DNA of 64,000 nt from Allocoleopsis franciscana PCC 7113 (GTDB lineage Bacteria; Cyanobacteriota; Cyanobacteriia; Cyanobacteriales; Coleofasciculaceae). A program made the position numbers and the translations under genes. The notes beneath the pieces are model-generated. The model had not been told where the DNA came from and ran no database searches. It was given only the letters and a program-made list of their open reading frames with translations. Every line of letters starts with the position of its first letter. The stretch's first letter is position 1. The stretch is taken from NCBI RefSeq assembly GCF_000317515.1, contig NC_019738.1:1873623-1937622 (forward strand). Direction: 5' to 3'. Positions 25,347 through 58,142 of this stretch are shown here, piece by piece.

Positions 25347-28300
25347 GTGTTTATGTTGAACTGCGTTGAAACTCTGTTATCTGACGGAGTACTGATGATC
25401 CAACAGCCTTGGGTTTTCTGGACACCAAAGCTGAGTTGGCTCCAGATTTCTTCTCATTCATTAATTGTCTTATTTTACTACTCGATTTCCATCCTAGTAT
25501 TCTACTTTTTGTTCCAGCGCAAGGCTCTGTTTTATGCCGGAAGTTGGATGCTGTTTGGGACTTTTACCCTGACGAGCGGCACCGTTGAATTAATGAATGG
25601 ATGGACAGTAGGGTACCTTCATCCTTGGCTAGCATCGCTAAGCGAAGCCATCGCCGTAGCCATGCTATTGTCCACCGTACTCCTCGTGGCGCTGTTACTC
25701 TCCAAAGTCCTAGCAAAGCCTGACTCTGCTCACCCCCAAGCCTCGCTACAAAATCAACTTGACGTGAATACTACTCACGCCGCCGCTTCAGAGACTCCAG
25801 CCGTAGCCGTAACAGAAGAGTCAGCACTTGTGGCAGAAAATAGTATGTTGCAACAAAATCAAACTCAACCCCTGAACATTGATTGGGAACAACAAATCAA
25901 CGAGCAGATCGCACAGTTGCAGCGAAACCATCCCCAATTAAACGGTGACATTCCTGGGCGAGTCCGTTGGTTAGAAGAACTCGGTCTGTTACAGTCACTC
26001 AGTACCCTGATCAGCGACGCTCCCGATTTTCATTCAGCACTGTGTATGGCGCTGCGCTTAGTGTGTGAAGTCACAAACTGGGACTATGGCGAAGCGTGGC
26101 TCCCTCGCCCCGACGACCGTGTTTTAGAATGTACTCCGGCTTGGTATAGCAAAACCCCAACACTAGAACCGTTCAGATTCTCCAGCCAAAAGCTGACGTT
26201 GCCCCCCAATATGGGTTTGCCAGGACGAGTATGGACTTCACGGCGACCTCTTTGGATTGAAGATATTTCGGCCTTAACCGATACGTCGATGGTTCGCCCC
26301 CAGGCTCAAGTGGCGGGACTGAAGGCGGGGTTTGGAGTCCCCATCCTGATGGGCGATCGCGTCTTGGCGGTTCTCACCTTTTTCATCACCCAATCTCGTG
26401 CGGAAGATGACCAATTGGTGGAACTGGTGTCGGCTGTAGCAACCCAATTAGGGTTAGTGATGCAGCGCAAGCAGTTAGAAGAAGAACTGCGCCAAGAACG
26501 AGACTTTAGCAAAACCCTGATTGAAACCAGTTCTGCCTTTTTTGTAGCGGTGGATGCTCAAGGCAGAATACTCATGATGAATCAAGCCTTCCTCAATGCC
26601 GTGGGTTATACCTTGGTTGAGGTTTTGGGGGCTGATTATTTATTGACGTTTGCACGCCAGTGCGATCGCAAGTTGCTCTACAAAAACTTTAAGCAACTGG
26701 TGAAATCGAGGCAACCCATCCTGAAAGAAAACTACGTCCTCACCAAGGATGGACGAGAGCTTTTAGTGGAGTGGCGGGGGAAATCCATCTTCAGGCATTC
26801 CCCGGCAGAGGCAGGGAACGAGGAGGAACTGGATTTATTGTTTGGTGTCGGCATTGATATCACCGAACGCAAGCAATTAGAGCAGGAACTCCGCCACAGT
26901 GAGGAGCGATATCGTGCGGTTGTGGAAGACCAAACCGATCTCATCTGTCGATTTATCGCGGATGGCACCATTACCTTCGTCAACGACGCCTATTGCCGTT
27001 ATTTTGGCAAAACCCGCGAGGAACTCCTCGGCAGCAATTTGTTGCAAATGATTCCCGGTTCGTATCGGCAAAAGACCCAAAAGCACATCGCCAGCCTGAG
27101 TTTGAAAAACCCAGTCGCCACCAGAGAATACCAAATTCTCATGCCTGACGGCGAAACTCACTGCCTACAGTGGACAGATCGGGTGATTGTTGACCCAGAA
27201 GCCAAAAAACGCGGAGAATTGCACTTATCCGGTTCATCCCAGTGTTCCTCAACACCGGGATATGACCCCATCGTTGAGTTTCAATCCGTGGGACGGGATG
27301 TGACAGAACGCCGCCGCTCAGAACACGAAACCGCACGGCTGGCATCAATCGCACTCCTCAGCCCTAACCCCATTGTGGAAACGGATTTAGCCGGTAACGT
27401 TCGTTATCTGAATCCAGAAGCCATGCGATTGTTACCCGATTTACAAGAAATGGGTGCAGAACATCCGTTTCTCACCGGAGTCCCCTCAATGACTACGGTA
27501 CTGCAACGCAAAGGTTCCATGCGGCGGGAACTCAAAATCGGTGAGATTTATTATGAACAAGTCCTGCATTATTTAGAAGAAATTGAGTGCTTTCGCATCT
27601 ATGCCTTTGATATTAGCGATCGCAAACAGGCCGAACAACAATTAATTCATAATGCCTTTTACGACCAACTCACAGGGCTACCAAACCGGGCTTTATTTAT
27701 GGATCGCTTGAAGCAAGCGATGCGACGTGCCAGACAGAGTCGTAGGAGTGACTCACGCGGCGTGCCTTATTTGTTTGCTGTCCTGTTTCTCAACCTGAAT
27801 CGCTTTAAGTTAGTCAACGACAGCTTAGGAAACGAGGTGGGGGATCAGGTGCTCCAGGAATTTGCCCAGCGTCTCCAGATGTGCCTGCGGGCTACAGATA
27901 CTGTAGCCCGCCTCGGAGCAGATGAGTTTACGATTCTTTTGGAAGGGATTCAGGATGTCAATGACGCTACACGGGTGGCAGAGTTGATTCATGAAACGCT
28001 GAGTACACCCTTTGAGCTTAATGATTGCTCTAACCAAAACTCCTCCGAGGACACCGCCAGTGGCAATCGCGAAGTGTTCATGACACTCAGCATGGGAATT
28101 GCTCTTAATACGAATCATGACGAGCAACCGGAAGACCTGCTCCGCAATGCTAACCTGGCGATGTATCGGGCGCGATCGCCTGTAGCACTGCGCGGAACGC
28201 AATCGCAAGGCAAAGCTCACTATGAAGTCTTTGACGCTGCCATGCACGAGATTGCTGTCGAGCGATTGCAGATTGAAACTGACTTGCGGCGAGCGATTGA

Positions 28301-29066
28301 ACGGGAAGAATTTCGAGTTTACTATCAACCCATTGTGTCTCTCTCCACCGGCAGCATTATTGGATTTGAAGCTTTGTTACGCTGGCAGCATCCACAACGC
28401 GGCTTAATTTCTCCCAATGGATTCATCTCCACCGCCGAAGAAACGGGACTGATTAGCCCTATTGGTTGGTGGACGTTGCGGGAAGCTTGTCATCAACTCA
28501 AACAGTGGCAGGAGCAATTTCCGTCTGCCAAGCCATTAACAATGAACGTCAATCTTTCTTGCAAGCAGTTTACTCAATCGGATTTACTCGAACAAATTGA
28601 CACCATACTTCAGGAGGCTCAACCCGCCGTCGGTAGTTTAAAGCTGGAGATTACAGAAAGTGTGGTTATGGAAAATCCGGATTGGGTGAAAGATGTCTTA
28701 CTCGAACTCAAAAAAAGGATGATTCCGCTGTGCATTGATGACTTTGGTACAGGCTATTCTTCCTTAAGTCGGTTACATCATTTTCCAATTAGTACCCTAA
28801 AAATTGACCGTTCATTTATTAGCCGGATTGGGGCATTAGGAGAAAATTCAGAAATTGTCCAAGCGATCGTAACGTTGGCTCAAACTCTGAGTATGGATGT
28901 TGTAGCAGAGGGAATTGAGGTTTCAGAACAGGTGTCACCTCTGCTGGCATTGCAATGTGAATATGGGCAGGGATATTTCTTCTCTAAACCGGTGGATAGT
29001 GAGGCGGCGAGAGCACTTTTGATGGCGGAATGGGAGCAACGGAAGGAAGAAGTGGGTAATGGGTAA
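25347..29066 (+). CDS. Membrane sensor with GAF, PAS/PAC, GGDEF (degenerate GADEF) and EAL domains
   Basis: N-terminal TM helices, GAF, two or more PAS domains, RATD I-site + RLGADEF, then EALLRW...DDFGTGYSSL EAL motifs. Confidence 0.85.
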   Translation: MFMLNCVETLLSDGVLMIQQPWVFWTPKLSWLQISSHSLIVLFYYSISILVFYFLFQRKALFYAGSWMLFGTFTLTSGTVELMNGWTVGYLHPWLASLSEAIAVAMLLSTVLLVALLLSKVLAKPDSAHPQASLQNQLDVNTTHAAASETPAVAVTEESALVAENSMLQQNQTQPLNIDWEQQINEQIAQLQRNHPQLNGDIPGRVRWLEELGLLQSLSTLISDAPDFHSALCMALRLVCEVTNWDYGEAWLPRPDDRVLECTPAWYSKTPTLEPFRFSSQKLTLPPNMGLPGRVWTSRRPLWIEDISALTDTSMVRPQAQVAGLKAGFGVPILMGDRVLAVLTFFITQSRAEDDQLVELVSAVATQLGLVMQRKQLEEELRQERDFSKTLIETSSAFFVAVDAQGRILMMNQAFLNAVGYTLVEVLGADYLLTFARQCDRKLLYKNFKQLVKSRQPILKENYVLTKDGRELLVEWRGKSIFRHSPAEAGNEEELDLLFGVGIDITERKQLEQELRHSEERYRAVVEDQTDLICRFIADGTITFVNDAYCRYFGKTREELLGSNLLQMIPGSYRQKTQKHIASLSLKNPVATREYQILMPDGETHCLQWTDRVIVDPEAKKRGELHLSGSSQCSSTPGYDPIVEFQSVGRDVTERRRSEHETARLASIALLSPNPIVETDLAGNVRYLNPEAMRLLPDLQEMGAEHPFLTGVPSMTTVLQRKGSMRRELKIGEIYYEQVLHYLEEIECFRIYAFDISDRKQAEQQLIHNAFYDQLTGLPNRALFMDRLKQAMRRARQSRRSDSRGVPYLFAVLFLNLNRFKLVNDSLGNEVGDQVLQEFAQRLQMCLRATDTVARLGADEFTILLEGIQDVNDATRVAELIHETLSTPFELNDCSNQNSSEDTASGNREVFMTLSMGIALNTNHDEQPEDLLRNANLAMYRARSPVALRGTQSQGKAHYEVFDAAMHEIAVERLQIETDLRRAIEREEFRVYYQPIVSLSTGSIIGFEALLRWQHPQRGLISPNGFISTAEETGLISPIGWWTLREACHQLKQWQEQFPSAKPLTMNVNLSCKQFTQSDLLEQIDTILQEAQPAVGSLKLEITESVVMENPDWVKDVLLELKKRMIPLCIDDFGTGYSSLSRLHHFPISTLKIDRSFISRIGALGENSEIVQAIVTLAQTLSMDVVAEGIEVSEQVSPLLALQCEYGQGYFFSKPVDSEAARALLMAEWEQRKEEVGNG

Positions 29067-29093: not shown

Positions 29094-29750
29094 TTATTTT
29101 TTCTTCATTGCTAAAGGTAATACAGAAAGAAGAGCCAAAAAACTTAGCGCGATGAAAAAAGGGAGGCGATCGCCTCCCCGCAAAGCCTCTTTCCCAGCTA
29201 CTCCCAGCCATGCATAAGCCAAGGTTCCAGGGATAATGCCCAAGAACGTACCAACGGCATAATAAACCCAAGGGATAGAGGTCAGACCAAATAGGAAATT
29301 GACGACATTAAATGGAGAAATGGGAGCAAAGCGCACTGATAAGACAAAAGCCAAAGGTTTGTCAATTACCGCTTGATTGAACCGTACCAATGCCTTGTGA
29401 TGTCCAAAGCGGCGAACCGCCCAATTCCGCAGCAAGTAACGCGCCACCCCAAAGGCTCCAATCGCTCCCAGCGTGGCACCTACTACCGACAAAAAAGTCC
29501 CCCAGACTAAACCAAAAACGACGCTACCAGCAATGGTGAGAACCGTCCCCGGAACTCCTAAAACTGTGGCTAGAGTGTAAATGAGTACGAATAAATAGAC
29601 AGCCCAGTTACCGCATCGGTGCAACTGCTGCACGAGGAATTGCTGATTAAACAAGCCTTTTAAAGGCGTGAAGCAACACAACAGGCACAGTACCAAAAAG
29701 GCGATCGCTAGCCACAATCGAGGAGTTTTCAGCCGTCTGCTCAGAGTCAT
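29094..29750 (-). CDS. TVP38/TMEM64 (DedA-related) membrane protein
   Basis: 218 aa, polytopic; G..G..L.Y motif-like region; last gene of the ars-linked operon. Confidence 0.65.
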   Translation of the reverse strand: MTLSRRLKTPRLWLAIAFLVLCLLCCFTPLKGLFNQQFLVQQLHRCGNWAVYLFVLIYTLATVLGVPGTVLTIAGSVVFGLVWGTFLSVVGATLGAIGAFGVARYLLRNWAVRRFGHHKALVRFNQAVIDKPLAFVLSVRFAPISPFNVVNFLFGLTSIPWVYYAVGTFLGIIPGTLAYAWLGVAGKEALRGGDRLPFFIALSFLALLSVLPLAMKKK

Positions 29751-29787: not shown

Positions 29788-30783
29788 CTAAACCAAAGCA
29801 CCCCCACAACTCGAACCACAACCCGCTGTGCAACCATAGCAATAGGAAGCCGTGCGAATCTGATCAATTAAGTCTAAACTACCCGCTTCTAAGAGCTTCC
29901 CCACCGTCAATGTTTCCCCAGTGCGAGACTTCGCTCCTAGATTTTCCATTTGGTTAAAGTCGCAATCGTAGACATTGCCCAGATAATCAATCGAGAGTTC
30001 ATCACGACACATCAAATGTTCTATTGTACTTGCATTGTAATTGTCCTCTAGAAACCTGAGATAAGGAGAATATAACTTGGTTCGTTGCAAATGAAACTTA
30101 CTTCTACCCACAGGTAGATTTGTAATTGTAAATAGCTGGTTAAATTGAATATCAAAATGTTCTTTCAAGAACTTTTTGTAATCCTGTTCTAACTTAACCT
30201 GATTGGGAGTTAAAGAAAATTTATCACTCAATGGGAGTGGCGGATTATACACCAAATCAATAATTAAATTGGGGTCTTTCCCATAGCCTAACTGATTGAG
30301 CCATTGAATAGCACGAATAGAATCATTATAGACACCATTCCCTCGCATTTTATCCACATTGTCTTCTAAATAGCAAGGCAATGATGCCACTACTTTTAAT
30401 TGATTTTCGGCAAAATATTCAGGAAGATAGTCGAATCCGGGTTCAAAATAAATCGTCAAATTGGAGCGGACAATGACTTCCTTGCCCGTTTCCCGTGCTG
30501 CCTCAACAATTGGTTTAAATCCATAGTTCATCTCCGGTGCGCCACCCGTCAGGTCAACTATCTTAATTTGAGGAAAGCGATGAATCAGGTCAATGATTTG
30601 ATGGCAAATTTCCGGTGAAAGTTCTTCGGTGCGTTTGGGGCCAGCGTCTACGTGGCAGTGAGTACAAGCCAAATTACAACGCTTGCCTAAATTAATCTGT
30701 AAAACAGTAATTCTGTTTTTAGTTAAGGGTGAATTCAGTTTGGTTCTAAATGGCGTTACTGCTGGCGCTTCTATCTGAGTCAT
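29788..30783 (-). CDS. arsS: Radical SAM / Cys-rich domain protein, ArsS-like (arsenosugar-type)
   Basis: CNLACTHCHVDAGP radical-SAM cluster motif; C-terminal CYGCTAGCGSSCGG Cys-rich tail characteristic of the ArsS family. Confidence 0.6.
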   Translation of the reverse strand: MTQIEAPAVTPFRTKLNSPLTKNRITVLQINLGKRCNLACTHCHVDAGPKRTEELSPEICHQIIDLIHRFPQIKIVDLTGGAPEMNYGFKPIVEAARETGKEVIVRSNLTIYFEPGFDYLPEYFAENQLKVVASLPCYLEDNVDKMRGNGVYNDSIRAIQWLNQLGYGKDPNLIIDLVYNPPLPLSDKFSLTPNQVKLEQDYKKFLKEHFDIQFNQLFTITNLPVGRSKFHLQRTKLYSPYLRFLEDNYNASTIEHLMCRDELSIDYLGNVYDCDFNQMENLGAKSRTGETLTVGKLLEAGSLDLIDQIRTASYCYGCTAGCGSSCGGALV

Positions 30784-30831: not shown

Positions 30832-33447
30832 TTAAGCTTTCCTCACCCGGCAAGCAAAGCATTTGTAGGCTTGCTGACCGGAAAGATTGTCGTAATATTG
30901 GTCATCTACCAGGGTATTGGCGGCTTCATAGTAGGGAGTTCCGAGTTCTTCAGCCATTTTTTGCATCGGGCCAAACGTATGAGGAACGAAGATGGTATCC
31001 TCACGAATACCCTCCCAAATTTGCGCGGTTCCGGTAATCGAACCTCTAGGACTTTCTACGGCGATCGCATCCCCATTCTTAATCCCCACCCTCTGCGCCA
31101 CTTTAGGATGAATTTGAACTAGCCGAATGCCGTTCATTTGCTTACCCGTGTACGTCCACTGAGTTACGGTGTGAAAATGCACCACACTCGGCCTACCAAT
31201 CATCCCCATCAGTGGATACTCTTGGTGTACTTCCCCAGAGGAAATTCCGCCTAACTTTACCTTTTGGGTTAGTGCTTGCGGATTTATTGGGTTTTGGACA
31301 AATTCTTTGCTGTACTCGATCGTTGGATTTTTGCCCGTTACTTCGGGATGGGTGTAAAAGATGGGTAAGGCTGCGTGTCCGGCAACGGCCAACTTTTTCT
31401 CTAATTCTGAGGTATAGATTTCTACTTTGCCACTGGGGGTCAAAAAGCGCTTGCCCTGGTTTCCAGAAGTCGCTGTAACCCCTCTGTTCGCGTCACTATC
31501 CTGACTCGCTGTATCAGCGTTCCTGATACCAAGCCCTTTCACCACCTGATACCAGGAGGGATGATCTAAGTAGAGGGTGCTGACGCCAGGATGATCCAGA
31601 GAAGGACAAGGCCAGCGCAGGGGTTCCGCCCGCTTTTCCATGCGTTCCTGGGTCATACCTCCCATACCAGGGGTATTCTTGACAAAGGTTGCCCAGAGAT
31701 TGCGGTAGTCTTTCCATTCCAGGGGGAAATTCTCTGTCCAGTAGGCGGGTGGATTTTTCTTGTCCAACTTAGCCATAGCGTGTGCCAAGTCGATCCAAAT
31801 TTCCCAATCGGGTTTGGACTCTCCCACGCGAGGAACCGCCTGCTTTTGCCAGCGAATTGCCCTGTCGTCCCGCCGCATATAGACGGTTTCCATCTCAAAG
31901 CCGCTGCACACGGGTAGGATGATATCGGCGTAATAGGCAGATTCTTCCATAAACAAGCCAGTGTAGACATAGAACTCTAGCTGGCGGTAAGCCTCTTTTA
32001 CCTGACGCGTGTTGGCACTGGAGACAAGGGGATTGCCCGCCGTTGCGATCGCCTTCAAGCGATAAGGCTTCCCAGTTAGGATAGATTCGGCAAAATAGTC
32101 TGGGCCAACGGGTAACGCCACATCTTTCTTGGGAGGATTGCCCTCGATTGCCGGAAGATTTAACCCACCAGGCCAAGTATTGTGCATGAAATTGCAGCCG
32201 CCACCATTTACGCCAATGTTGCCCGTAACAGCAGCTAAAAATGCCAGGGTTCGGTAAGTATCGAAGGCGTTTAGTTGATGGGAGATGCCAGCATTGCAGA
32301 AAATTGCGGCCGGTTTTGTCCTAGCGTACTCCTCAGCAATTTGTCTGATTTTACCTGCTGGAACCCCTGTAATAGTTTCTGCCCATTCCGGCGTGTAGCC
32401 TTGCTTAACCAGGTGAGTTTTCAACTCCTCGAAACCAAGCACCCATTTTTGCACAAAGGCGGCATCGTGCAGGTTCTTGTCCAGAATATGATGCAACATT
32501 GCGAGAACCAAAGCTTGGTCGGTATGCGGCTTCGGTGCAATCCACTCATCTGCCTGTGCACCAGTTGGCGTTAGTCGAGGGTCAATTACTATCAGCTTTG
32601 CCTTAGTTTGGGCGCGACTTCTCAGCAGGTAAGCAAAGGTTACGGGGTGAGTTTCCGCTTGATTGGTACCCAAAAATAAGAAGTATTTCGCTGCACCTAA
32701 ATCTTCTTTCCCTGTTGCGCCATCCTTACCGTAGCCGTTGGTGAAATTCCCCAAGCCAAACGTCCATGCTAAAGCGTTTCCTCCAGCATCGTTACAGACT
32801 GGGCCAACATCTGTGTCGTTAGGACTTCCCAAGAGGGTGAAGAAGCGTCCAATTACCGAACCTGTGCCTCGTGGCATTCTACCAGAGGTTTTGTTTGCGA
32901 TAGCGAAGCGCTGCTGCGAAGCGCAGATCGCGCGTACCTCTCCCGCATCCCGAAGCGCTAAGAATTTCGTAGCGATAGTTCCCAACGCTTCATCCCAAGA
33001 AATCGGCTCAAACTTGGAATCCGGAGAACCCTTCTCGCCGGAAACCCGCTTCATCGGACTTTTCAGGCGGAAGCGATTGTAAACCAGTTGTGTCATCATC
33101 GGTCCTTTGACACAAAAGCCCCCCGATTGAACTGGATCGTCCGGTTCACCCAGAACATCAATAATGCGCCCATCTTTGACATGAACTTTTAGGCGGCACA
33201 GGGAGTTACAGAATTGACAAGCACTATCGATGATTGCATCTGGTTGTAGCGCCCCAGATTTCTGAGTAAAGTCAAATTCTGCACTGGGGGAAGTGGTAGC
33301 GGGATAGTACCCATCTTCCTTTGCCTCAGCCTGTCCTTTGAGCAAATCAGCCCCAGTTACGGCAGCAGCACCAATCGCAGCACCTTTCAAAAAGCCCCGA
33401 CGCGAAACACCCTGACGCGATACTTTCTTTTTATCTTTTGATTTCAT
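30832..33447 (-). CDS. TAT-exported molybdopterin oxidoreductase, DMSO-reductase family catalytic subunit, substrate unknown
   Basis: SRRGFLKGAAIGAAAV twin-arginine signal; CQFCNSLC-X27-CVKG = CX2CX3CX27C [4Fe-4S] motif; 871 aa; no adjacent Fe-S or cytochrome subunit gene. Confidence 0.8.
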   Translation of the reverse strand: MKSKDKKKVSRQGVSRRGFLKGAAIGAAAVTGADLLKGQAEAKEDGYYPATTSPSAEFDFTQKSGALQPDAIIDSACQFCNSLCRLKVHVKDGRIIDVLGEPDDPVQSGGFCVKGPMMTQLVYNRFRLKSPMKRVSGEKGSPDSKFEPISWDEALGTIATKFLALRDAGEVRAICASQQRFAIANKTSGRMPRGTGSVIGRFFTLLGSPNDTDVGPVCNDAGGNALAWTFGLGNFTNGYGKDGATGKEDLGAAKYFLFLGTNQAETHPVTFAYLLRSRAQTKAKLIVIDPRLTPTGAQADEWIAPKPHTDQALVLAMLHHILDKNLHDAAFVQKWVLGFEELKTHLVKQGYTPEWAETITGVPAGKIRQIAEEYARTKPAAIFCNAGISHQLNAFDTYRTLAFLAAVTGNIGVNGGGCNFMHNTWPGGLNLPAIEGNPPKKDVALPVGPDYFAESILTGKPYRLKAIATAGNPLVSSANTRQVKEAYRQLEFYVYTGLFMEESAYYADIILPVCSGFEMETVYMRRDDRAIRWQKQAVPRVGESKPDWEIWIDLAHAMAKLDKKNPPAYWTENFPLEWKDYRNLWATFVKNTPGMGGMTQERMEKRAEPLRWPCPSLDHPGVSTLYLDHPSWYQVVKGLGIRNADTASQDSDANRGVTATSGNQGKRFLTPSGKVEIYTSELEKKLAVAGHAALPIFYTHPEVTGKNPTIEYSKEFVQNPINPQALTQKVKLGGISSGEVHQEYPLMGMIGRPSVVHFHTVTQWTYTGKQMNGIRLVQIHPKVAQRVGIKNGDAIAVESPRGSITGTAQIWEGIREDTIFVPHTFGPMQKMAEELGTPYYEAANTLVDDQYYDNLSGQQAYKCFACRVRKA

Positions 33448-33486: not shown

Positions 33487-34377
33487 TTAACCTCTTATCC
33501 CGTTCACATAAGCTGCTGTTAAAGCTTCCTGCGGTGCTTCAAACATCTGCTGAACACATCCATATTCAATCAATCGCCCAACCCCATCTTGAACCCAAAA
33601 GAGGGCAGCATAGTCCGCAATTCTACGCGCTTGGGCTAAGTTATGGGTAACAATGAGTTGGGTGTAACGTCCCCGCAAACGGGCAATCAAATCCTCCACT
33701 ACACCGCTGGAAATCGGATCGAGAGCACTACAAGGTTCATCTAATAACAAGACTTCAGGTTTCAAGACCAAAGCCCTGGCAATACACAATCGCTGTTGCT
33801 GTCCGCCGGAGAGGGCGAGGGCAGGGGCATTCAGTCGGTCTTTTACCTCGTCCCACAAGCCCACATCTTCTAGAGTTGATTCTATAATTTGATCGACTTG
33901 TTCGCGGTTTTTAATGCCGTGCTCTCGTAGCGGTAATGCCAGATTCTTCCAAATTGATAGGGGGAAGGGGTTGGGCTTTTGGAAGATCATACCGACACGG
34001 CGACGGAGTGCGATCGCATCTATCTTGGCATCGAGTACATTCAGTAAACCCATCCGAATGTGTCCCGATACACGGCATCGGGGAATCAAGTCAGTCAGGC
34101 GATTGAGGCAGCTTAAAAAACTAGTTTTACCACAGCCAGAAGGCCCAACCAACGCCGTAATGCAACCCTCATGAATCGGTAACGTTACATCTGCGAAGAT
34201 CGGTTTCTCCCCATAGTGCAAACTTAATTGCTCAGTCTGAATCAAGGGGTGAGGCAAGTCGGAAAATTGGGGAGATTCATGTATGCCATTGGCGTTGCCG
34301 TTGGGTATTGTCTCTATGGGTTCAGGTGTATTCAAAGTAGTGTAATCCTCCGATGTAACCAATGCTGAGCCATCCAT
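33487..34377 (-). CDS. PstB-like ABC ATPase with ~45-aa N-terminal extension
   Basis: GPSGCGKTS Walker A; VGMIFQKPNPFP PstB signature; LSGGQQQRLCIARAL; LLLDEP. Confidence 0.8.
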   Translation of the reverse strand: MDGSALVTSEDYTTLNTPEPIETIPNGNANGIHESPQFSDLPHPLIQTEQLSLHYGEKPIFADVTLPIHEGCITALVGPSGCGKTSFLSCLNRLTDLIPRCRVSGHIRMGLLNVLDAKIDAIALRRRVGMIFQKPNPFPLSIWKNLALPLREHGIKNREQVDQIIESTLEDVGLWDEVKDRLNAPALALSGGQQQRLCIARALVLKPEVLLLDEPCSALDPISSGVVEDLIARLRGRYTQLIVTHNLAQARRIADYAALFWVQDGVGRLIEYGCVQQMFEAPQEALTAAYVNGIRG

Positions 34378-35258
34378 GCTGCTGTGCCATTAATCAGCAG
34401 CAACACAACCAGCAGCACTAAAGCTGATGCATAGGCATTTTTATCCCCTCCAGCAACATTCATCGAAAGATCGAAAATGTGAATGGAAAGGGCACGTCCA
34501 GAATCGAGTAGAGACTCCGGCATCCGATCTACGTAGCCACTGGTGAAGATGAGGGCGGCTGTTTCTGCGATCGCACGGCCCATTCCTAGCACCAATCCCA
34601 CCATAAGTCCCGGAACCGCCGCAGGTAAAAGCAAGTGCCACAACGTCGTCGTGCGCGAAAAGCCTAAAGCCGCTGCTGAGAGCCGATAATGGTTAGGAAC
34701 AGCACGAAACCCCTCTTCTGTCGCACGAATTAGAATCGGCAGCACCATACACGCCAGCGTTAATCCACCGGACAAAATCGAGAACCCTAGTCCTAGCACG
34801 TTGCAGAAGAAGGCATTCCCAAACAACCCAAAGACAATCGACGGCACACCTGCCAGAACATCCAAACTGCGACGTACCAGACGCCCGAAAAAACTTTCCT
34901 CCGAGGTGAATTCCGCTAGCAGTACAGCCGTACCTATCCCAATGGGAACGGAAACCGCCATGCAAACACCCAGAATTAGAAGAGTGGAGACAAGAATGGG
35001 ACCAATACCTCCCCGGCGTCCCGCATTCTCCGGTGCAGCTGTGAGAAACTCCCAGGAAAGTTGTCCCGCACCATGCCAAATAATGTCACTCAGTATCCAG
35101 AGGAAGACGGCGGTTACTAAAATAGCGATCGCCCAAACCACAACTGTAGGCAGTAAAGAGTAGACAGTGGCAAGACGACTCTTTTGTCTCCCGATTCCTG
35201 ACTCTAGGGCGGGCACGGAGGCACCGCCCCTACGACTCCTGACTCCCGTTTCAGTCAT
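34332..35258 (-). CDS. PstA-like ABC permease
   Basis: 6-TM permease; start chosen at internal Met giving an 8-nt overlap with the upstream permease. Confidence 0.7.
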   Translation of the reverse strand: MTETGVRSRRGGASVPALESGIGRQKSRLATVYSLLPTVVVWAIAILVTAVFLWILSDIIWHGAGQLSWEFLTAAPENAGRRGGIGPILVSTLLILGVCMAVSVPIGIGTAVLLAEFTSEESFFGRLVRRSLDVLAGVPSIVFGLFGNAFFCNVLGLGFSILSGGLTLACMVLPILIRATEEGFRAVPNHYRLSAAALGFSRTTTLWHLLLPAAVPGLMVGLVLGMGRAIAETAALIFTSGYVDRMPESLLDSGRALSIHIFDLSMNVAGGDKNAYASALVLLVVLLLINGTAAWMAQHWLHRRITLL

Positions 35259-36159
35259 AAATTCTCCCCTTGCTGATTCCCTCAGCCGCAACAACCAGTG
35301 CCACAATCAGCGCCATCAGCACCAATCCACTGACAAAGAGTGCTGAACGATGATTACCTGTTGCATAAGCCATTTCTAGGGCAATATTGGCGGTGAGTGT
35401 CCGCATCGGTTCAAATAGACTCTTAGGAGTTTGCACGACATTGCCGCAAACCATCAAAATTGCCATTGTTTCACCAATAGCGCGACCTGTTTCTAGAATC
35501 ACCCCCGTGAACAGTCCCGATTTGGCAGCAGGAAAAACAACCCCCCAAATCATTCCCCACCGGGAGAATCCCAGCGCCGACGCACCCCGCAGGTATTCTG
35601 GAGGAACCTTGGCGAGGCTGGCATCTGCCATGAGTGCGACTGTAGGCAAAATCATAATCGTGAGGATAGCAATCCCAGCTAAGAGACTGGTTCCCGGCGG
35701 TTGGATGCGTCCAATAATCGGCACCAATACGACCAAACCCCAGAATCCGTAAACGACGGAGGGAATTCCCGCCAGTAACTCGATCAGCCGTCGATAGAGT
35801 CCGGCAATCGTGGGAGGAGCATAGTAGTGGCAGAAGACAGCAGATAAAATCCCCAATGGTGTCGCTACCAGCACTGAACCCGCCATTGCCAAGAGGGTGC
35901 CCCAAAGCATGGGGGTGAGGTTGTAGAGTCCTTCTGCGGGATTCCAGGATGCATCAGTGAAGAAGCGCAATAGTCCGACGTTTTGCAAAACTGGCAGCGC
36001 TTCCAACCCTAGAAACACCACAATCAAAATGACGATCGCACCCGCAACAACCGCACATCCCCGCAGCGTCCAGATGAGGATTTGGTCACTTTGATAGGGA
36101 GACAAAATTCTGCTCTTTGACAATGTTCTGTACCTTTGGCGATCGTGCGAAATCAACAA
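35251..36159 (-). CDS. PstC-like ABC permease
   Basis: 6-TM permease with EAA-like loop (RGASALGFSRWGMIW); the annotated start overlaps the pstS-like 3' end, so the real start is probably downstream. Confidence 0.7.
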   Translation of the reverse strand: MLISHDRQRYRTLSKSRILSPYQSDQILIWTLRGCAVVAGAIVILIVVFLGLEALPVLQNVGLLRFFTDASWNPAEGLYNLTPMLWGTLLAMAGSVLVATPLGILSAVFCHYYAPPTIAGLYRRLIELLAGIPSVVYGFWGLVVLVPIIGRIQPPGTSLLAGIAILTIMILPTVALMADASLAKVPPEYLRGASALGFSRWGMIWGVVFPAAKSGLFTGVILETGRAIGETMAILMVCGNVVQTPKSLFEPMRTLTANIALEMAYATGNHRSALFVSGLVLMALIVALVVAAEGISKGRIYD

Positions 36160-36940
36160 ATTCCTTCTCCAACCCTTGAGGTTGAGTTTTCATCACCAAG
36201 TTGAGGGGACGGGAAATAGGAAACGTCTCGTTTTGCACATTTGCTGTAGTAGCGGCTACTCCATTAACAGGCAGTAGCTTGATAGGAACACCGTTGCTAG
36301 AGCCATATTCCGCTGTCCCAATCGACACGTATCCGATCGCGTTGGGATTACCCGCAACTGTCTTAATTCCCTGCTCATTGTCACCAATCACCACTTGAGC
36401 TTTGATGTCACTATTCTTGAGCTTGAAGTAGTTCGTAAACAGTTCTAGCGTGGAGCGTCCCTCAGCTTTATTGACTACAGTGATAGGAGCATCCTTGCCT
36501 CCTACCTGCTTCCAGTTGCCAATCTTGCCTGTGTAAATATCAACAACTTGGCGATCGCTCAGGGACTGTACTGGATTATCTTTGTGAAGGATGATTGTCA
36601 CACCATCACGAGCGATCGTAAACGCTTGAAGGTCTTTTTCGTCCTCCTTGAGAGCGCGAGAAACCATACCAATGTTAGCTAGTCCTTTGCGAGCATCCGT
36701 AATGCCGCGAGAGGAACCACCACTCTGCACATCCACCCGTACAGCGGAATGTTCAGCCTCAAAGCGCTTGCCAATTTCGGAGGCTAGAGGTGCAACTGTG
36801 CTGGAGCCGGTTAATACTAGCTTGCCCTGTAATTTATCACTGGACTGTGTTGATGCTTCTGGGGGCTTAGTACAGGATTGTAACCCCATACAAACCGCCA
36901 AACTCATGGAAAGCGATGCCAGTATTCGGAAGTTTTTCAT
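36086..36940 (-). CDS. PstS-family periplasmic phosphate/oxyanion-binding lipoprotein
   Basis: Lipobox LQSC; LTGSSTVAPLA and SGGSSRGI...GMVSRAL motifs of the short PstS family. Confidence 0.75.
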   Translation of the reverse strand: MKNFRILASLSMSLAVCMGLQSCTKPPEASTQSSDKLQGKLVLTGSSTVAPLASEIGKRFEAEHSAVRVDVQSGGSSRGITDARKGLANIGMVSRALKEDEKDLQAFTIARDGVTIILHKDNPVQSLSDRQVVDIYTGKIGNWKQVGGKDAPITVVNKAEGRSTLELFTNYFKLKNSDIKAQVVIGDNEQGIKTVAGNPNAIGYVSIGTAEYGSSNGVPIKLLPVNGVAATTANVQNETFPISRPLNLVMKTQPQGLEKEFVDFARSPKVQNIVKEQNFVSLSK

Positions 36941-37104
36941 AAGTGATGCACTGAAATTATCCTGTCGGAATTAATCAAAGGAGAGGAGGCAGCAACCAAG
37001 GTCAATTGTCCTACCAGGGAATGAGGGCGCAATACTCCCATCTCCTCGTAGCCGGAGCTTTAGGGGGGAAGGGGTTGGGGGAGAGGTATCCCTTGCAGTA
37101 TTTG

Positions 37105-37240
37105 AGACGAGTGGTGTCTGGCAGAACCTTCAGCTTGCGGACACAAAACGACTGGGGTAACTCGTTTTTCTGGTTTATGGCTCACTGCCTGCCTGGATTG
37201 AACCGTGATTGATATGAAATTATATTCATATTTTAATTAA
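37105..37240 (-). promoter_or_regulatory. Duplicated arsR promoter/operator plus dead 5' fragment of arsR, upstream of the pstS-like operon
   Basis: ~85% identical to 57012-57140 (arsR start region). Contains the imperfect palindrome TTGATATGAAATTATATTCATAT. The start codon is mutated to ATA in this copy. Confidence 0.55.
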
Positions 37241-38549: not shown

Positions 38550-39014
38550 ATGCCTCAGCGAGACGCGATTCATAACATCATCAAGCAAGCTCTCATCAAG
38601 GAGGGTTGGGAAATCACGGACGATCCCTATGTCATATCGTATGGTGAGCGATTTCTCTTTATCGACTTGGCAGCAAGGTTAGATGCGCTCAATGGTATTG
38701 CAGGACGCTTTATCGGTGCTAGACGCGGTAGCAGTCGAATTGCCGTTGAAATTAAGGAGTTTCGAGGCAACTCGGCAATTGCTGATTTGGAGCAAGCGAT
38801 TGGTCAATATGTTCTTTATCGATTACTCCTCGAACAGGTTGATCGAGAGCGTGAGTTGTATCTCGCTGTTGCAGACACAACCTTTGACGGGATTTTCAGC
38901 GAACCGATTGGTGATTTGGTGATGCGTGAGTTACCAATGAAATTGCTTATTGTAGATGTAGAGGCGGTAGAGGTGAAGCGATGGATACCAGCACGAGAGA
39001 GCGGGACATTGTAA
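38550..39014 (+). CDS. xisH: XisH family protein (PD-(D/E)xK-like)
   Basis: MPQRDAIHNIIKQALIKEGWEITDDPY...ERFLFIDLAA...IAVEIK. Confidence 0.8.
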   Translation: MPQRDAIHNIIKQALIKEGWEITDDPYVISYGERFLFIDLAARLDALNGIAGRFIGARRGSSRIAVEIKEFRGNSAIADLEQAIGQYVLYRLLLEQVDRERELYLAVADTTFDGIFSEPIGDLVMRELPMKLLIVDVEAVEVKRWIPARESGTL

Positions 39015-39304
39015 AGCAGGTGATTCAACGATACGCCCAGTTCAAACCTTCTCATGGCCATATTCGACTCGACACGGTATTTGACGACACGCAAAACCGC
39101 TATGCACTAATGCAAGTGGGTTGGGATAGAGGACGACGGGTTAGGGGAAATTTGATTTATGTGACTTTGAGTGAGGGTAAGGTTTGGGTGGAATATGACG
39201 GGATGGAACAGGGAATTACTAAAGATCTAATTGCCGCAGGTATCCCTCCAGAGCGAATTGTTCTTGCATTTCTCCCTGAAGAGCAAACTGCTGCAACTGC
39301 CTAA
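38981..39304 (+). CDS. xisI: XisI family protein
   Basis: Overlaps xisH 3' end; ...RYALMQVGWD...GKVWVEYDG. Confidence 0.8.
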   Translation: MDTSTRERDIVKQVIQRYAQFKPSHGHIRLDTVFDDTQNRYALMQVGWDRGRRVRGNLIYVTLSEGKVWVEYDGMEQGITKDLIAAGIPPERIVLAFLPEEQTAATA

Positions 39305-39324
39305 ACTCAAATTATGATGAGCTA

Positions 39325-39377
39325 GCGATCGCACCTGTACATATATACAGTCAAAACCCACCTACACGAACGAGCGC
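39325..39377 (+). repeat. Left copy of ~50-bp imperfect direct repeat flanking the nuclease scrap island
   Basis: GATCGCACCTGTACATATATACAGTCAAAACCCACCTACACGAACGAGCGC vs the copy at 41536-41584, about 80% identical. Confidence 0.45.
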
Positions 39378-39459
39378 TCTGTTCGTTCATTCTTACATTC
39401 AAGTAGCAGATAAAAGCTATCATACCATCTAATATAAACAAAAAGGTAATGGCACCTTA

Positions 39460-40599
39460 TCAAACACGAATAGGGCTTCCAGCAATGCACCAATTCATAA
39501 CAACTTGTCCAATCTTTTCCCAATCAGAATGCATGGATTTATCAACTATTTTTGCAATCTCATGAGGATTTTTATGTTTAAGATATTCAACGGTATTGCT
39601 GAGCGTATTTTCTCCAAATCCCAGTGATATTTTACATTTACATTCTCCACTATTATTACTGCATTGCCAGTTAGCTTGACACCAATCATCTATAGAACTT
39701 GATATATTGGGAATTAAAGAAGTTTTTACTTCCCAAAAAGATTTAATTTTAGGATTACTTGCATTAATAATTTCCTTCATCCGAGTTCCTTTTTTTATAT
39801 CTAAAAAACGCCTAATCTCGAATGCCGTACTACTAATATTTTCAAAGATTTTTAAAACTTTGAGTCTTTCCTGGTTTCTTGAACACAGTTCAGATAAAAT
39901 TGAGTTAGGTATTAAGTTTTCAATTTCACGGCAATCAAGAATAAAAGTTTGCGTATTTATACAATTTGAATCGCTCTGAGTTTGGATGAGAGATGCTGTG
40001 GAGCCAAAGTTTCCATCAGGAGCAATTTTATCGCTATCTACAATACAAAGACAAAAACGTTTTTTTAATTCTTGAATATTAATATATTCAAGAGAAATTG
40101 TATTGCCGCCACCTCCTCTACCTTCGCATACTATTTTGATATTAATGTTGTTCCATACAAGATAAATTTTTGCTATGGTTTCGTATAGAATAGTATCATG
40201 AATATTTTCACACAGAAGTATGGTTTTCTGTACTAACTCTGAATCATTAAAAAAACGTGGAGCAACTTTAATAATTTGCTTACCTGAATTAGACACCACT
40301 TCTGGTTCATAACAAGAATTAACAAGTTCAATATATCTGGTTACCGCAGAAAGGTAAGATTCTAATTGTGTAGATTCTAATTGTGTAGATTGGTTAAATA
40401 ACTTGTTGTAAGTATTCCTGGCAAATTGAGATAAACGACGGCATTGAGCAATCTTTTTGAAAATTTCTCTCTTAGCCATTACTAAAGGCTTACCTTCCCG
40501 ACGAGCAGATGCAAGATTTTCTAAAGCCAAAACAGTTTCATCGTCCCAACTATTTTCATCTCCATTATCTACTACAGAGCTATTGATAAAAATCAGCAT
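39460..40599 (-). CDS. DUF4435/Toprim-like (AriB/OLD-type) putative nuclease, AT-rich
   Basis: KIVCEGRGGG (E), CIVDSDK (DxD), DCREIENLIP (RExEN) in Toprim order; Cys-rich C-terminus; GC content far below surroundings. Confidence 0.45.
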   Translation of the reverse strand: MLIFINSSVVDNGDENSWDDETVLALENLASARREGKPLVMAKREIFKKIAQCRRLSQFARNTYNKLFNQSTQLESTQLESYLSAVTRYIELVNSCYEPEVVSNSGKQIIKVAPRFFNDSELVQKTILLCENIHDTILYETIAKIYLVWNNINIKIVCEGRGGGGNTISLEYINIQELKKRFCLCIVDSDKIAPDGNFGSTASLIQTQSDSNCINTQTFILDCREIENLIPNSILSELCSRNQERLKVLKIFENISSTAFEIRRFLDIKKGTRMKEIINASNPKIKSFWEVKTSLIPNISSSIDDWCQANWQCSNNSGECKCKISLGFGENTLSNTVEYLKHKNPHEIAKIVDKSMHSDWEKIGQVVMNWCIAGSPIRV

Positions 40600-41235: not shown

Positions 41236-41535
41236 GTGACCCTTGTAGTAGTAGCCCTTTGCCTTCTCATAAATTGGGTCTTCAATCGTGCGGACATACT
41301 CCTCTCATGAGGCTGTTAACCATATATCTGTGCGGGGTCTGGTTTGTAACTCACTCATGGTCTATATCGGTTGGTAGTTTGGCTTGTAGTTGGCTCATAA
41401 CCACCCTTTTAGCTACCGCTCACCCACATCTTAACGTAGGGGCGATCGCCCTTGGCGCTACGCTGCGCGTAATCGCACACTCTGAATGTGGAGGATGAAC
41501 AGTGAGACTGATAGCGAAGCGCTGCCGCCAAAGGC

Positions 41536-41584
41536 AGATCGCACCCATACCTACATACAGCCAAAACCAACTTACGCGATCGCT
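41536..41584 (+). repeat. Right copy of ~50-bp imperfect direct repeat
   Basis: AGATCGCACCCATACCTACATACAGCCAAAACCAACTTACGCGATCGC. Confidence 0.45.
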
Positions 41585-56778: not shown

Positions 56779-57084
56779 TCAGTTAAAGGAAAGCAGGCAA
56801 CAGCCAAGATCAATTGCCCTACCAACCTTTTCCTGCCAGACGGCGGGAGTCAAACTGTAAAGCACCGCCTTGCCATCTCGTGTCGCCTCAACAAACCCCT
56901 CTTCCCGCAGAATTTTGAGGTGGTGCGATAGCAAACTTTGCTCCACATCTAGAACAGCGTTCAACTCCCCAACATGCTTTGGCCCTTCCATCAGGATTTC
57001 CAAAACGGCTAGACGAGTGGTGTCTGCTAAAACTTTCAGCTTGCGGACGCAAAACGACTGAGGTAATTCGCTTTTTGGGTTCAT
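56779..57084 (-). CDS. arsR: ArsR/SmtB-family metalloregulator
   Basis: wHTH LADTTRLAVLEIL...HVGEL...LSHHLKILREEGFV; Cys near N-terminus and C-terminal CC pair. Confidence 0.8.
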   Translation of the reverse strand: MNPKSELPQSFCVRKLKVLADTTRLAVLEILMEGPKHVGELNAVLDVEQSLLSHHLKILREEGFVEATRDGKAVLYSLTPAVWQEKVGRAIDLGCCLLSFN

Positions 57085-57110
57085 AGCTGCCTGCCTGGAT
57101 TGAACCGCGA

Positions 57111-57136
57111 TTGATATAAATATAATTTCATATCAA
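57111..57136. promoter_or_regulatory. Putative ArsR operator (imperfect 26-bp palindrome)
   Basis: TTGATATAAATATAATTTCATATCAA 27 nt upstream of the arsR start; copied upstream of the pst-like operon. Confidence 0.45.
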
Positions 57137-57173
57137 TCGCCAAAAAAACACCCTTATCCTCTCTTTTTCCGAA

Positions 57174-58142
57174 TTAACAGCAACCGCCACCCACGTAGTG
57201 CCACGTTGAATCTGTAATGATCACATCCTCAGGTCGTGACTTCCCTAGCTTTGCGGCTGTCTTATCGCAGACAACGGCGGGTACACCCCGTTGGAGAACA
57301 TGTCCTGCTGAGTCATCAAAAAATTCTTCGCTACCCTTGTAAATCGCTGTTTTTCCCGTGAAAATGCAGGCACCATCTTCAGGAATCGGGACTTTGAAGG
57401 CAACACAATCCAGACTTTCTAACAGCAAATCTTCTTCCAAATAGTAAGTGTGACGATCTAAGAGTCGGTAAGGACGACGGGCGCGAATTTCCACCTGACC
57501 AAATCCAGCATCAATAATCCGTTGAGTATACTGCTCATAAGTCAGAGCACCAGATAGACACATCGCCCTCAATCGTTCATCTTGTTGCAAATGTACTGGG
57601 ATAGGACGAGTGGCAATGGGGTCGCTCATTTGCAGGCGTCCGCCTGGTTTTAATACCCGGTAGGCTTCTTTCAAAGCTTTGGTGAGGTCATCCGGCTCAA
57701 AGATATTAAATAAACAATTTTGTGCCACGACATCCACAGAGGCATCTGGCACAGGCAGGGCGAAGGCGTCTCCATCCCGAATTTCGACAAAACTGGGGTT
57801 AAACCAGGGATTTTCTTGAGCAGCCAGTTCTAGGTTACGGGTAGCTGCTTCCCGCATGGCGCTGACCGGTTCAACAGCAATAACGCTACCAGAACGGCGG
57901 GAAAAATAGGCGAATTGCAACGCTTCCAAGCCGCCACCGACACCGACATACAGTACAGTTGGCTCATTGGTGAGTTCAGCCGGATGAACCGTTGTGCCGC
58001 AACCATAGTTCATTTGCTGCATGGGTTCAGGAATGCTCAGTCCTGGCAGTCTCAGGGGGCTACTTTGGACGCAACATAAACCCACTTGGGGCGTTTGGGC
58101 AACTTCACTGTAAAATTCGGCAGTTGTTTTAAGATAAGTCAT
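57174..58142 (-). CDS. arsM: Arsenite S-adenosylmethionine methyltransferase
   Basis: YSEVAQ...GLCC...YGCG block as in AS3MT/ArsM, SAM-MTase motifs VLYVGVGGG / LKPGGRL, C-terminal Cys pair. Confidence 0.85.
   Translation of the reverse strand: MTYLKTTAEFYSEVAQTPQVGLCCVQSSPLRLPGLSIPEPMQQMNYGCGTTVHPAELTNEPTVLYVGVGGGLEALQFAYFSRRSGSVIAVEPVSAMREAATRNLELAAQENPWFNPSFVEIRDGDAFALPVPDASVDVVAQNCLFNIFEPDDLTKALKEAYRVLKPGGRLQMSDPIATRPIPVHLQQDERLRAMCLSGALTYEQYTQRIIDAGFGQVEIRARRPYRLLDRHTYYLEEDLLLESLDCVAFKVPIPEDGACIFTGKTAIYKGSEEFFDDSAGHVLQRGVPAVVCDKTAAKLGKSRPEDVIITDSTWHYVGGGCC

Follow-up and report, generated by a model that had tools for sequence, protein, structure and literature searches.

An unnamed family of predicted Tat-exported molybdoenzymes without a dedicated redox partner, encoded among arsenic genes in cyanobacteria and other bacteria

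The molybdoenzyme gene, its product and its family

A 64,000-nucleotide stretch of Allocoleopsis franciscana PCC 7113 (NCBI RefSeq assembly GCF_000317515.1, contig NC_019738.1, forward-strand positions 1,873,623 to 1,937,622; hereafter the window) encodes an 871-residue oxidoreductase of the molybdenum/tungsten bis(pyranopterin guanine dinucleotide) (Mo/W-bisPGD) type, referred to here as the Mo enzyme. Its gene, the Mo gene, belongs to an operon of seven genes on one strand, in the order pstS, pstC, pstA, pstB, Mo gene, arsS and a VTT/DedA gene. All gaps are 48 nt or shorter (39 nt from pstB to the Mo gene, 48 nt from the Mo gene to arsS), and no convincing internal terminator was detected within the seven genes (Table 1).

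Three Pfam domains were identified in the order Molybdop_Fe4S4 (PF04879, 2.9e-14), Molybdopterin (PF00384, 2.4e-48) and Molydop_binding (PF01568, 5.6e-18). This order, together with fold matches to many members, placed the protein in the Mo/W-bisPGD superfamily, also named after dimethyl sulfoxide (DMSO) reductase. The AlphaFold2 model had a predicted local distance difference test (pLDDT) score of 75.8 and a predicted template-modelling (pTM) score of 0.82.

The N-terminus carries the elements of a twin-arginine translocation (Tat) signal, namely S/T-R-R-x-F-L-K, an h-region and A-x-A. Residues 14-21 read V-S-R-R-G-F-L-K and are followed by a mildly hydrophobic stretch and by A-E-A|K, with a signal-peptidase site predicted after A40-E-A42. 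R16 and R17 were at least 90% conserved in an alignment of 39 sequences, and the arginine pair was present in nearly all full-length members among 79 family open reading frames (ORFs), including Gram-positive and actinomycete ones. The Mo enzyme is thus predicted from its sequence to be exported.

The [4Fe-4S] cluster motif (FS0) spans residues 77-112 as C-QF-C-NSL-C-(27 residues)-C. Its four cysteines and Lys114 were invariant in the 39 sequences, which come from several phyla, and the X27 spacing was found in 74 of the 75 family ORFs where the motif falls inside the called ORF. Cys218, the predicted Mo ligand, aligned with Sec140 of Escherichia coli FdhH and with the cysteine of S-L-C-T-A-P in PsrA (2vpw); Cys218 and Asn219 were invariant, as was the whole D-V-G-P-V-C-N-D motif around them. 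The electron relay formed by Cys218-Mo, Lys114 and FS0 appears intact in sequence, and its invariance argues for redox competence. These results agree with a first-pass annotation of the window, which had reported the Tat signal SRRGFLK and a CX2CX3CX27C motif. Both are present, at S15-K21 and from C77 to C112 respectively, and the alignment that it proposed for finding the Mo ligand pointed to Cys218.

The Mo enzyme represents a tight, unnamed family (57-89% identity) whose members come from Cyanobacteria, Actinobacteria, Verrucomicrobia, Planctomycetes, Acidobacteria and Myxococcota, at least several hundred species in all. A homology search returned more than 100 cyanobacterial clusters at 73-89% identity, with carriers including Nostoc, Scytonema, Tolypothrix, Fischerella, Chroococcidiopsis and Microcoleus, and hundreds more at ~60-70% from other phyla. 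The family is therefore not rare in cyanobacteria; the annotation had taken periplasmic molybdoenzymes to be rare there, which does not hold for enzymes of this kind. A scan of one genome per species gave at least 574 relatives, the Actinobacteria including Streptomyces, Amycolatopsis, Kutzneria and Micromonospora. Clustering of a library at 50% identity left essentially a single family representative (1145 bits); the relatives that came next scored from 722 to ~400 bits and were followed by a plateau of FdhF-like proteins of ~690 residues below 290 bits. The hosts are aerobes or oxygenic phototrophs. The homologues bear generic database names such as 'formate dehydrogenase (coenzyme F420) alpha subunit' or 'anaerobic selenocysteine-containing dehydrogenase'. 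When the homology search was repeated with a Streptomyces member as query, no functional name appeared among the homologues, and no description naming or testing the Mo enzyme was found in the searchable literature. Collectively, these data define a new, previously unnamed clade within a known superfamily, with a partner-less, predicted exported architecture and a conserved arsenic context.

Table 1. Features of the Mo gene, its operon and the separate arsM and arsR genes (positions refer to the window)
Feature	Position	Strand	Evidence or remark
PstS-like periplasmic oxyanion-binding protein, first operon gene	36086..36940	-	TIGR02136 200 bits, just under cut-off 206.6; PBP_like_2
PstC permease	35251..36159	-	TIGR02138 248 bits, cut-off 196
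PstA permease	34332..35306	-	TIGR00974 247.5 bits, cut-off 193
PstB ATPase	33487..34377	-	TIGR00972 320.5 bits, cut-off 343
Mo/W-bisPGD oxidoreductase, predicted Tat-exported, 871 aa	30832..33447	-	ORF and translation, ATG start, three Pfam domains
Twin-arginine motif S15-R-R-G-F-L-K21	33385..33405	-	Translation and family conservation
[4Fe-4S] (FS0) motif C77-X2-C80-X3-C84-X27-C112, then K114	33112..33219	-	Direct count in translation
Cys218, predicted Mo ligand, in D-V-G-P-V-C-N-D	32794..32796	-	Alignment to FdhH and PsrA
Family-specific invariant loop G415-x-G-C-N-F-M-H-N-T-W-P-G427	32167..32205	-	Occupies the place of the formate dehydrogenase/Nap loop with Arg333
ArsS, arsenosugar-biosynthesis radical SAM enzyme	29788..30783	-	TIGR04167 417 bits, cut-off 300; DUF3641
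VTT/DedA-type membrane protein, last operon gene	29094..29750	-	PF09335
Perfect inverted repeat ATATGAA-N6-TTCATAT, ArsR/SmtB-type operator candidate	37212..37231	.	Spacer TATAAT on coding strand
Remnant copy of arsR promoter/operator and first ~27 arsR codons, ATG lost	37100..37240	-	Aligned with 56890-57175
ArsR/SmtB-family repressor, 101 aa, Cys12 and C-terminal Cys94-Cys95	56779..57084	-	NF033788 78 bits, cut-off 55
Second operator-candidate copy, 1 mismatch, 30 nt upstream of arsR	57114..57133	.	Pattern search
ArsM, arsenosugar-type arsenite methyltransferase	57174..58142	-	NF038099 580 bits, cut-off 400

Relationship to known molybdoenzymes

The placement of the family rests on ranks of hidden Markov model scores, of solved structures by sequence and of folds. 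No curated NCBIfam cut-off was reached by the 871-residue protein, and every score was less than half of the cut-off. The best match was the formate dehydrogenase (FDH) alpha model TIGR01591 (316.8 bits; cut-off 666), followed by PhsA (NF012032, 279 bits; cut-off 694), NasC (252.5; 1100), ArrA (NF041714, 187.3; 1600), the NapA models (102-114.5; all above 900, the highest score being 114.5 against 904), AioA (TIGR02693, 78.6; 359) and TtrA (60; 1750). Similarity to the Tor and Dms models did not exceed background. Among solved structures ranked by sequence, FdhF-type FDHs came first (E 3e-58 to 3.5e-49) and PsrA next, with ArrA 12th. In the fold ranking of the AlphaFold2 model, E. coli FdhH and the monomeric NapA of Desulfovibrio desulfuricans were closest (template-modelling score, TM, ~0.80), ArrA was 21st, PsrA 50th and AioA outside the top 50; acetylene hydratase was also among the structural neighbours (TMt 0.78).

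The first-pass annotation had read the cysteine spacing as a signature of the Arr/Arx/Psr/Ttr clade. Three FdhF-type chains (7qv7, 9t1s and 7bkb) aligned without gaps across the FS0 motif and thus have the same X27 spacing, so the spacing is not diagnostic for Arr/Arx/Psr. With ArrA, AioA, PhsA and TtrA scores also far below their cut-offs, and with ArrA at the ranks given above, an assignment from spacing is not supported.

The closest relatives are FdhF and FdhH (E. coli FdhH 1aa6/1fdi; Thermoanaerobacter kivui FdhF 7qv7), which gave the best sequence matches and the top fold match (TMt 0.80) and share the FS0 spacing, the Mo-ligand position (Sec140/Cys) and a 'WPC' motif. Unlike these cytoplasmic proteins, the Mo enzyme is ~150 residues longer, has a Tat signal and occurs in an arsenic rather than a hydrogenase or formate context. 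Membership of the FDHs was rejected: Sec140 corresponds to Cys218, but His141 is replaced by Asn219, the FdhH loop G-V-N-P-V-R333-G-Q-N-N-V-Q-G is swapped for G-G-G-C-N-F-M-H-N-T-W-P-G, and the TIGR01591 cut-off was missed. NapA of D. desulfuricans (2nap, 2v45; TMt 0.79-0.81) is likewise a periplasmic, Tat-dependent Mo-bisPGD enzyme, crystallised as a monomer, that has a single [4Fe-4S] cluster and a Cys ligand. Cytochrome or ferredoxin partners are encoded in nap operons; none was found at the Mo loci, and the low scores of the NapA and NasC models speak against both nitrate reductase families.

Like the Mo enzyme, the catalytic subunits of ArrAB and ArxAB are exported Mo-bisPGD proteins with a Tat signal, FS0 and arsenic genes nearby, and ArrA has a Cys Mo ligand. 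The Mo loci differ from them in having no ArrB/ArxB, ArrC or ArrD/ArxD genes and in belonging to aerobic hosts; ArrA/ArxA membership is not supported, given the missed NF041714 cut-off and the absence, at all 90 loci examined (see below), of an adjacent four-cluster ferredoxin subunit, which in Arr and Arx usually comes with a membrane anchor and a TorD-like chaperone. In AioA the cluster is of the [3Fe-4S] type and the Mo has no protein ligand; the Tat signal is on AioB, the Rieske subunit that AioA depends on. The Mo enzyme, by contrast, has four cluster cysteines, the Cys218 ligand and a Tat signal of its own, with no Rieske gene, and these features together with the missed TIGR02693 cut-off set it apart from AioA. 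The resemblance to AioAB lies in the proposed reaction and location and in the co-location of ars and pst genes, as in aio islands (PMC3834237). PsrA and PhsA share the cysteine spacing and the Cys ligand position, and PhsA was the second NCBIfam match; they were set aside on the missed NF012032 cut-off, the absence of PsrB and PsrC partners, the low fold rank of PsrA and the 26% identity of an E. coli plasmid PhsA. A further candidate, the 'alternative arsenite oxidase' of Thioalkalivibrio, is SoeABC and unrelated to the Mo enzyme.

The nearest relatives outside the family, P0122, P0124 and P0126 (37-45% identity), have the G-P-x-C-N-D ligand motif and an (F/Q/Y)-(T/S)-N-G-(Y/F/W)-G motif, as in the Mo enzyme family, and are without the CNFMHNTWPG loop. 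A Tat signal is also present in P0122 and P0126. P0122 is followed by a gene for a four-cluster ferredoxin subunit (Fer4_11) and preceded by histidine kinase and sigma-54 regulator genes. Upstream of P0126 lie genes for a phosphonate-type periplasmic binding protein, a kinase and a sigma-54 regulator, which is the architecture of AioXSR/ArxXSR, and P0129 belongs to a binding protein-kinase-regulator cluster with Fer4_11, NrfD and TorD-like genes. None of the sister clades reached a curated family cut-off or is functionally annotated, and P0126 is as far from ArrA as the 871-residue query. Given the partners and sensor triads of the sister clades, the family appears to be derived from heteromeric enzymes controlled by oxyanion sensors, with loss of the partner subunit. 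AioXSR/ArxXSR-like triads (phosphonate-type binding protein, histidine kinase, response regulator) accompany sister molybdoenzymes of 37-44% identity at loci L093 (631-4399), L094, L095 (284-3321) and L091 (1513-4751), and at L091, L093 and L094 an ORF of 75-89 residues lies directly upstream of the catalytic gene.

Gene neighbourhoods and operon control

We compared 90 loci, the window and 89 related ones, in which all ORFs were clustered and searched with reference proteins. No ferredoxin-type ORF (CxxCxxCxxxCP) was found within 3 kb of the Mo gene at any of them (0/90), so the lack of a partner characterises the family and is not peculiar to this window. Cytochrome c and cupredoxin genes were equally absent as neighbours of the Mo gene; CxxCH matches occurred only in an unannotated 221-residue ORF of L003 and, by chance, inside ArsS in four loci. 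In the window itself, no iron-sulfur, cytochrome or membrane-anchor gene stands beside the Mo gene, membrane-anchor genes being absent nearby at the related loci too, and the first-pass description of a single subunit without an electron-transfer partner thus applies here and at the 89 related loci. An exported, FS0-containing Mo-bisPGD enzyme without a dedicated redox partner is unusual in molybdoenzymology.

Arsenic markers (ArsR, ArsM, ArsS, Acr3, ArsC and BsnM/N) were counted within 10 kb of the Mo gene and were present at 47 of the 90 loci: 25/29 in Actinobacteria, 6/8 in non-Nostocales cyanobacteria and 16/34 in other phyla, many of the latter on short contigs. The gene orders were operon-like, and neighbour identities were confirmed by Pfam. 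The Mo gene lies between ArsM and ArsS genes in L001 and Chroococcidiopsis L008, adjoins ArsM in L025, L032, L034 and L041, and forms a two-gene ArsR>Mo unit in Planctomycetota L064 and Verrucomicrobia L033. Further orders are PiT>ArsC>Mo (L028, L034), Mo>PiT (L026, L027), PstSCAB>Mo>ArsM (L025), PstS-CA-B>Mo>ArsR>BsnM>BsnN (Streptomyces L059) and Mo>BsnM>BsnN...PstSCAB (L046, L052, L054, L060, L071). An annotated Streptomyces plasmid carries arsR-acr3-arsO-Mo on one strand, with arsC-trxB-trxA, pstSCB and aroA/gpmI homologues nearby. Linkage to bona fide ars genes was thus seen in unrelated lineages of five phyla, Nostocales being the exception. The ars-linked context to which the annotation had pointed is therefore real and conserved across at least five phyla; the annotation had named a lack of such conservation as grounds for doubt.

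Two non-homologous oxyanion importers, PstSCAB and PiT, were repeatedly co-directional with the Mo gene, a coupling which suggests that the product of the enzyme is the transported anion. Where an arsenic-controlled PiT and ArsC share an operon with the Mo gene (L028, L034), As(V) would enter the cell. Most actinomycete loci have BsnM/N and As(V)-type importers and no ArsM or ArsS, and the actinomycete Mo gene lies directly upstream of that for BsnM, a homologue of EPSP synthase (EPSP, 5-enolpyruvylshikimate 3-phosphate), making it an unassigned member of many bisenarsan-type clusters. BsnM has been proposed to condense As(V) with EPSP (PMC4943196; PMC12159101), arsenate and low phosphate act as inducers of a bisenarsan-type cluster (PMC4943196), and ArsR-family regulators bind inside the bsn cluster (bioRxiv 10.64898/2026.06.06.730586). 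In arsenite-oxidase islands (aioBA), ars, pst and pho genes are characteristic companions (PMC3834237).

Other neighbours were recorded alongside these. A CobW/G3E-family GTPase gene of the metallochaperone type occurs near the Mo gene in eight loci (L047, 12530-13720; L030, L027, L031, L037, L038, L062 and L076) from Verrucomicrobia, Planctomycetes, Acidobacteria and Actinobacteria, twice within 170 bp of it. In L003-L005 (1141-4210), binned as Planctomycetota, a 73%-identical Mo gene stands beside genes for glyoxalase/vicinal oxygen chelate (VOC), pyridine-nucleotide disulfide oxidoreductase, DJ-1/PfpI and Uma2 endonuclease proteins. Uma2 genes are typical of cyanobacteria, so these bins may be mis-assigned.

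In the window, ArsM and ArsR are encoded 24 kb from the Mo gene, with arsR following arsM. A perfect inverted repeat, a candidate operator of the ArsR/SmtB type, lies ~275 nt upstream of pstS, and a second copy precedes arsR; these were the only two matches to the pattern in the 64-kb window, against 0.23 expected. About 140 nt around the first repeat aligned at ~85-90% identity with the 5' region of the intact arsR, 20 kb away, including the 5' end of the gene, so the operon retains a remnant of an arsR promoter and operator. This suggests that an arsR of its own once headed the pst operon, or that the operon acquired the promoter through duplication. At the level of sequence, the two transcription units share an operator, as would members of one ArsR regulon of this genome. 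The ArsR protein has a C-terminal pair of vicinal cysteines, a usual feature of the sites at which ArsR proteins bind As(III). Elsewhere, the window pattern was convincing only in L064 (331-366), with related palindromes in L022 (3427) and L024 (4052). All three, perfect or near-perfect palindromes, sit beside arsR genes flanking the Mo gene; the sequence is ATATCAA-N6-TTGATAT in Microcoleus and, in a Planctomycetota metagenome-assembled genome, ATATGAA-N6-TTGATAT. Searches for Pho boxes gave no more than an AT-rich partial match in the region upstream of pstS and, in a few Nostoc loci, one 8+3+8 pair (CTTAATTG-CAT-ATTAATTA), matches that were judged too weak. The VTT/DedA protein encoded at the end of the operon may be a transporter for an arsenical; a VTT/DedA gene also follows arsS in Chroococcidiopsis L008 (13756-14289).

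Proposed function and alternatives

That the family is related to arsenic in some way is highly probable. As to its reaction, we tentatively propose, at somewhat less than even confidence, an extracytoplasmic arsenite oxidase working with an As(V)/phosphate importer. Arsenite oxidase was among the candidates of the first-pass annotation and stays the best single one. In the scheme that we infer, for substrate, direction, electron acceptor and regulation alike, As(III) would be oxidised to As(V) at the Mo centre outside the cytoplasmic membrane. Two electrons would leave via the pterin, Lys114 and FS0 to a generic soluble or membrane-exposed acceptor, which in cyanobacteria could be cytochrome c6 or plastocyanin. 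The importer, PstSCAB here and PiT in other phyla, would take up the As(V), or phosphate where the As(V) produced is also present. In the cytoplasm, ArsC would reduce As(V) for arsenosugar formation by ArsM and ArsS or, in actinomycete bisenarsan-type clusters, BsnM would take it directly. The operon would be switched on by an As(III)-sensing ArsR.

The oxidase direction is preferred because bsn chemistry needs As(V), because an arsenic-controlled PiT with ArsC implies As(V) entry, and because arsenite-oxidase islands are a known precedent for ars/pst/pho linkage (PMC3834237). It is also preferred because the hosts are aerobic, a way of life more in keeping with an oxidase than with a respiratory reductase, and because the quinol-linked donor that an external reductase would require is not encoded. 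The inverted repeat shared with the arsR promoter and the vicinal Cys pair of ArsR are consistent with an arsenic-responsive operon, and by analogy the ligand motif of the sister clades and their AioXSR/ArxXSR-like triads point towards arsenite oxidation.

Several observations weigh against an arsenite oxidase. An electron acceptor is encoded nearby in none of the 90 loci, and the secreted Streptomyces enzyme has no obvious redox partner. Oxidation of As(III) outside the cell followed by its re-reduction by ArsC inside looks wasteful or redundant, and the direction of the reaction cannot be fixed by genomics. No curated family unites the Mo enzyme with Aio, Arx or Arr, and binding protein-kinase-regulator triads also control non-arsenic systems. 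No arsenic gene was found within 10 kb of the Mo gene in the 19 Nostocales loci. In Nostoc sp. DSM 114160 (L006/L007, 2683-7455 and 10934-17482) the Mo gene is flanked by genes for giant secreted proteins of 1179-1820 residues that combine alkaline phosphatase, phytase-like, glycerophosphodiester phosphodiesterase (GDPD) and hemolysin-type Ca-binding domains, a neighbourhood for scavenging phosphorus rather than one for arsenic. Finally, Streptomyces coelicolor and Streptomyces lividans, in which the bsn cluster was studied, were absent from the named homologues in the search with a Streptomyces member.

To our knowledge, only Arr, Arx and Aio are recognised as arsenic-cycle molybdoenzymes. 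An arsenite oxidase in the present family might be a third, partner-less lineage, independent of Aio and Arx, and the first extracytoplasmic step of a deliberate arsenic assimilation, with dedicated Pst or PiT import leading to arsenosugars or arsonate natural products; we consider this broader proposal possible but rather doubtful.

The same arsenic synteny is equally compatible with an exported arsenate reductase, performing Arr-like chemistry without ArrB, that would remove phosphate's competitor at Pst/PiT or supply As(III) to ArsM. The Cys-ligated Mo and FS0 are as in ArrA, and the neighbouring Pst could serve selective phosphate uptake. Such an enzyme would, however, need a quinol-linked donor outside the cell, which none of the 90 loci encodes, and would destroy the As(V) required by BsnM in actinomycete clusters (PMC12159101). 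The ArsR-controlled PiT and ArsC in one operon with the Mo gene (L028, L034), the aerobic hosts and the ArrA score of 187 bits against 1600 also speak against it, and we regard it as unlikely.

The position of the Mo gene between ArsM and ArsS (L001, L008) or beside ArsM (L025, L032, L034, L041), and the flavin monooxygenase ArsO adjoining it in Streptomyces, could instead indicate an organoarsenical oxidoreductase. This might oxidise trivalent mono- or dimethylated arsenic (MAs(III)/DMAs(III)) outside the cytoplasm, or else reduce MAs(V), DMAs(V) or trimethylarsine oxide, the latter activity being akin to trimethylamine N-oxide (TMAO)/DMSO reductase chemistry. We give this no better chance than the reductase, since most actinomycete loci have BsnM/N and As(V)-type importers without ArsM or ArsS, the importer coupling points to an inorganic oxyanion, and similarity to Tor and Dms proteins does not rise above background.

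The enzyme might also act on another oxyanion whose product is imported by Pst or PiT, as an FDH-like phosphite oxidase for phosphorus acquisition or an antimonite oxidase. FDHs are closest by fold and sequence, Pst or PiT genes are adjacent, the sister-clade sensors use phosphonate/phosphite-type binding proteins, and the Nostocales loci are without ars genes, L006/L007 lying amid alkaline phosphatase, phytase and GDPD genes. Against these points, the ArsR>Mo, ArsR>Acr3>ArsO>Mo and ArsM>Mo>ArsS units are specifically arsenic-related, the window operon has an arsR operator and only weak Pho-box matches, and the FDH His and Arg are absent, so that we judge this explanation improbable. Were the protein instead a Mo/W enzyme without redox function, comparable to acetylene hydratase and with an arsenic compound as its substrate, the missing partner at 90 loci would be explained; the predicted secretion in Gram-positives and the presence of acetylene hydratase among the structural neighbours (TMt 0.78) fit this too. 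Such a role is very unlikely given the invariant FS0 cysteines and pterin-relay Lys, and no candidate reaction is apparent. Least credible of all is an ordinary FDH, nitrate reductase or polysulfide/thiosulfate reductase subunit, as automatic annotations have it: the best NCBIfam matches are Fdh-alpha (317 bits), PhsA (279) and NasC (252), the best PDB matches are FdhF/FdhH and the fold is closest to FdhH and NapA, but the scores fall below half of the cut-offs, His141 has become Asn and the Arg333 loop the invariant CNFMHNTWPG, no beta or gamma subunit is encoded, and neither the Tat signal, unlike FdhF, nor the arsenic context fits.

Environmental surveys gauge arsenic redox potential by Arr, Arx and Aio marker genes. 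The Mo enzyme represents a further, highly conserved molybdoenzyme family in arsenic islands, carried by hundreds of aerobic soil and freshwater species, among them Nostoc, Streptomyces, Acidobacteria, Verrucomicrobia and Planctomycetes. Should it act in arsenic redox chemistry, such surveys at present miss a large part of the arsenic redox capacity. It is a candidate for the unexplained cycling of arsenite oxidation and reduction noted for cyanobacteria. Were the arsenite oxidase proposal true, electrons in cyanobacteria could enter the photosynthetic chain via cytochrome c6 or plastocyanin, and reported cyanobacterial arsenite oxidation would gain a genetic basis.

Two further regions of the window border the operon. 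On the plus strand, 25347-29066 encodes a 1239-residue multidomain protein, convergent with the operon, whose motifs suggest a role in signalling and the presence of membrane, GAF/PAS, GGDEF and EAL domains. Directly upstream of the operon, 38550-42333 holds genes of low GC content (39-41%), including ORFs of 379 and 211 residues without an assigned function and one of 253 residues. This patch, which separates the arsenic operon from the ExbB/ExbD-like genes at 42411-43443, may be an inserted defence or mobile element.

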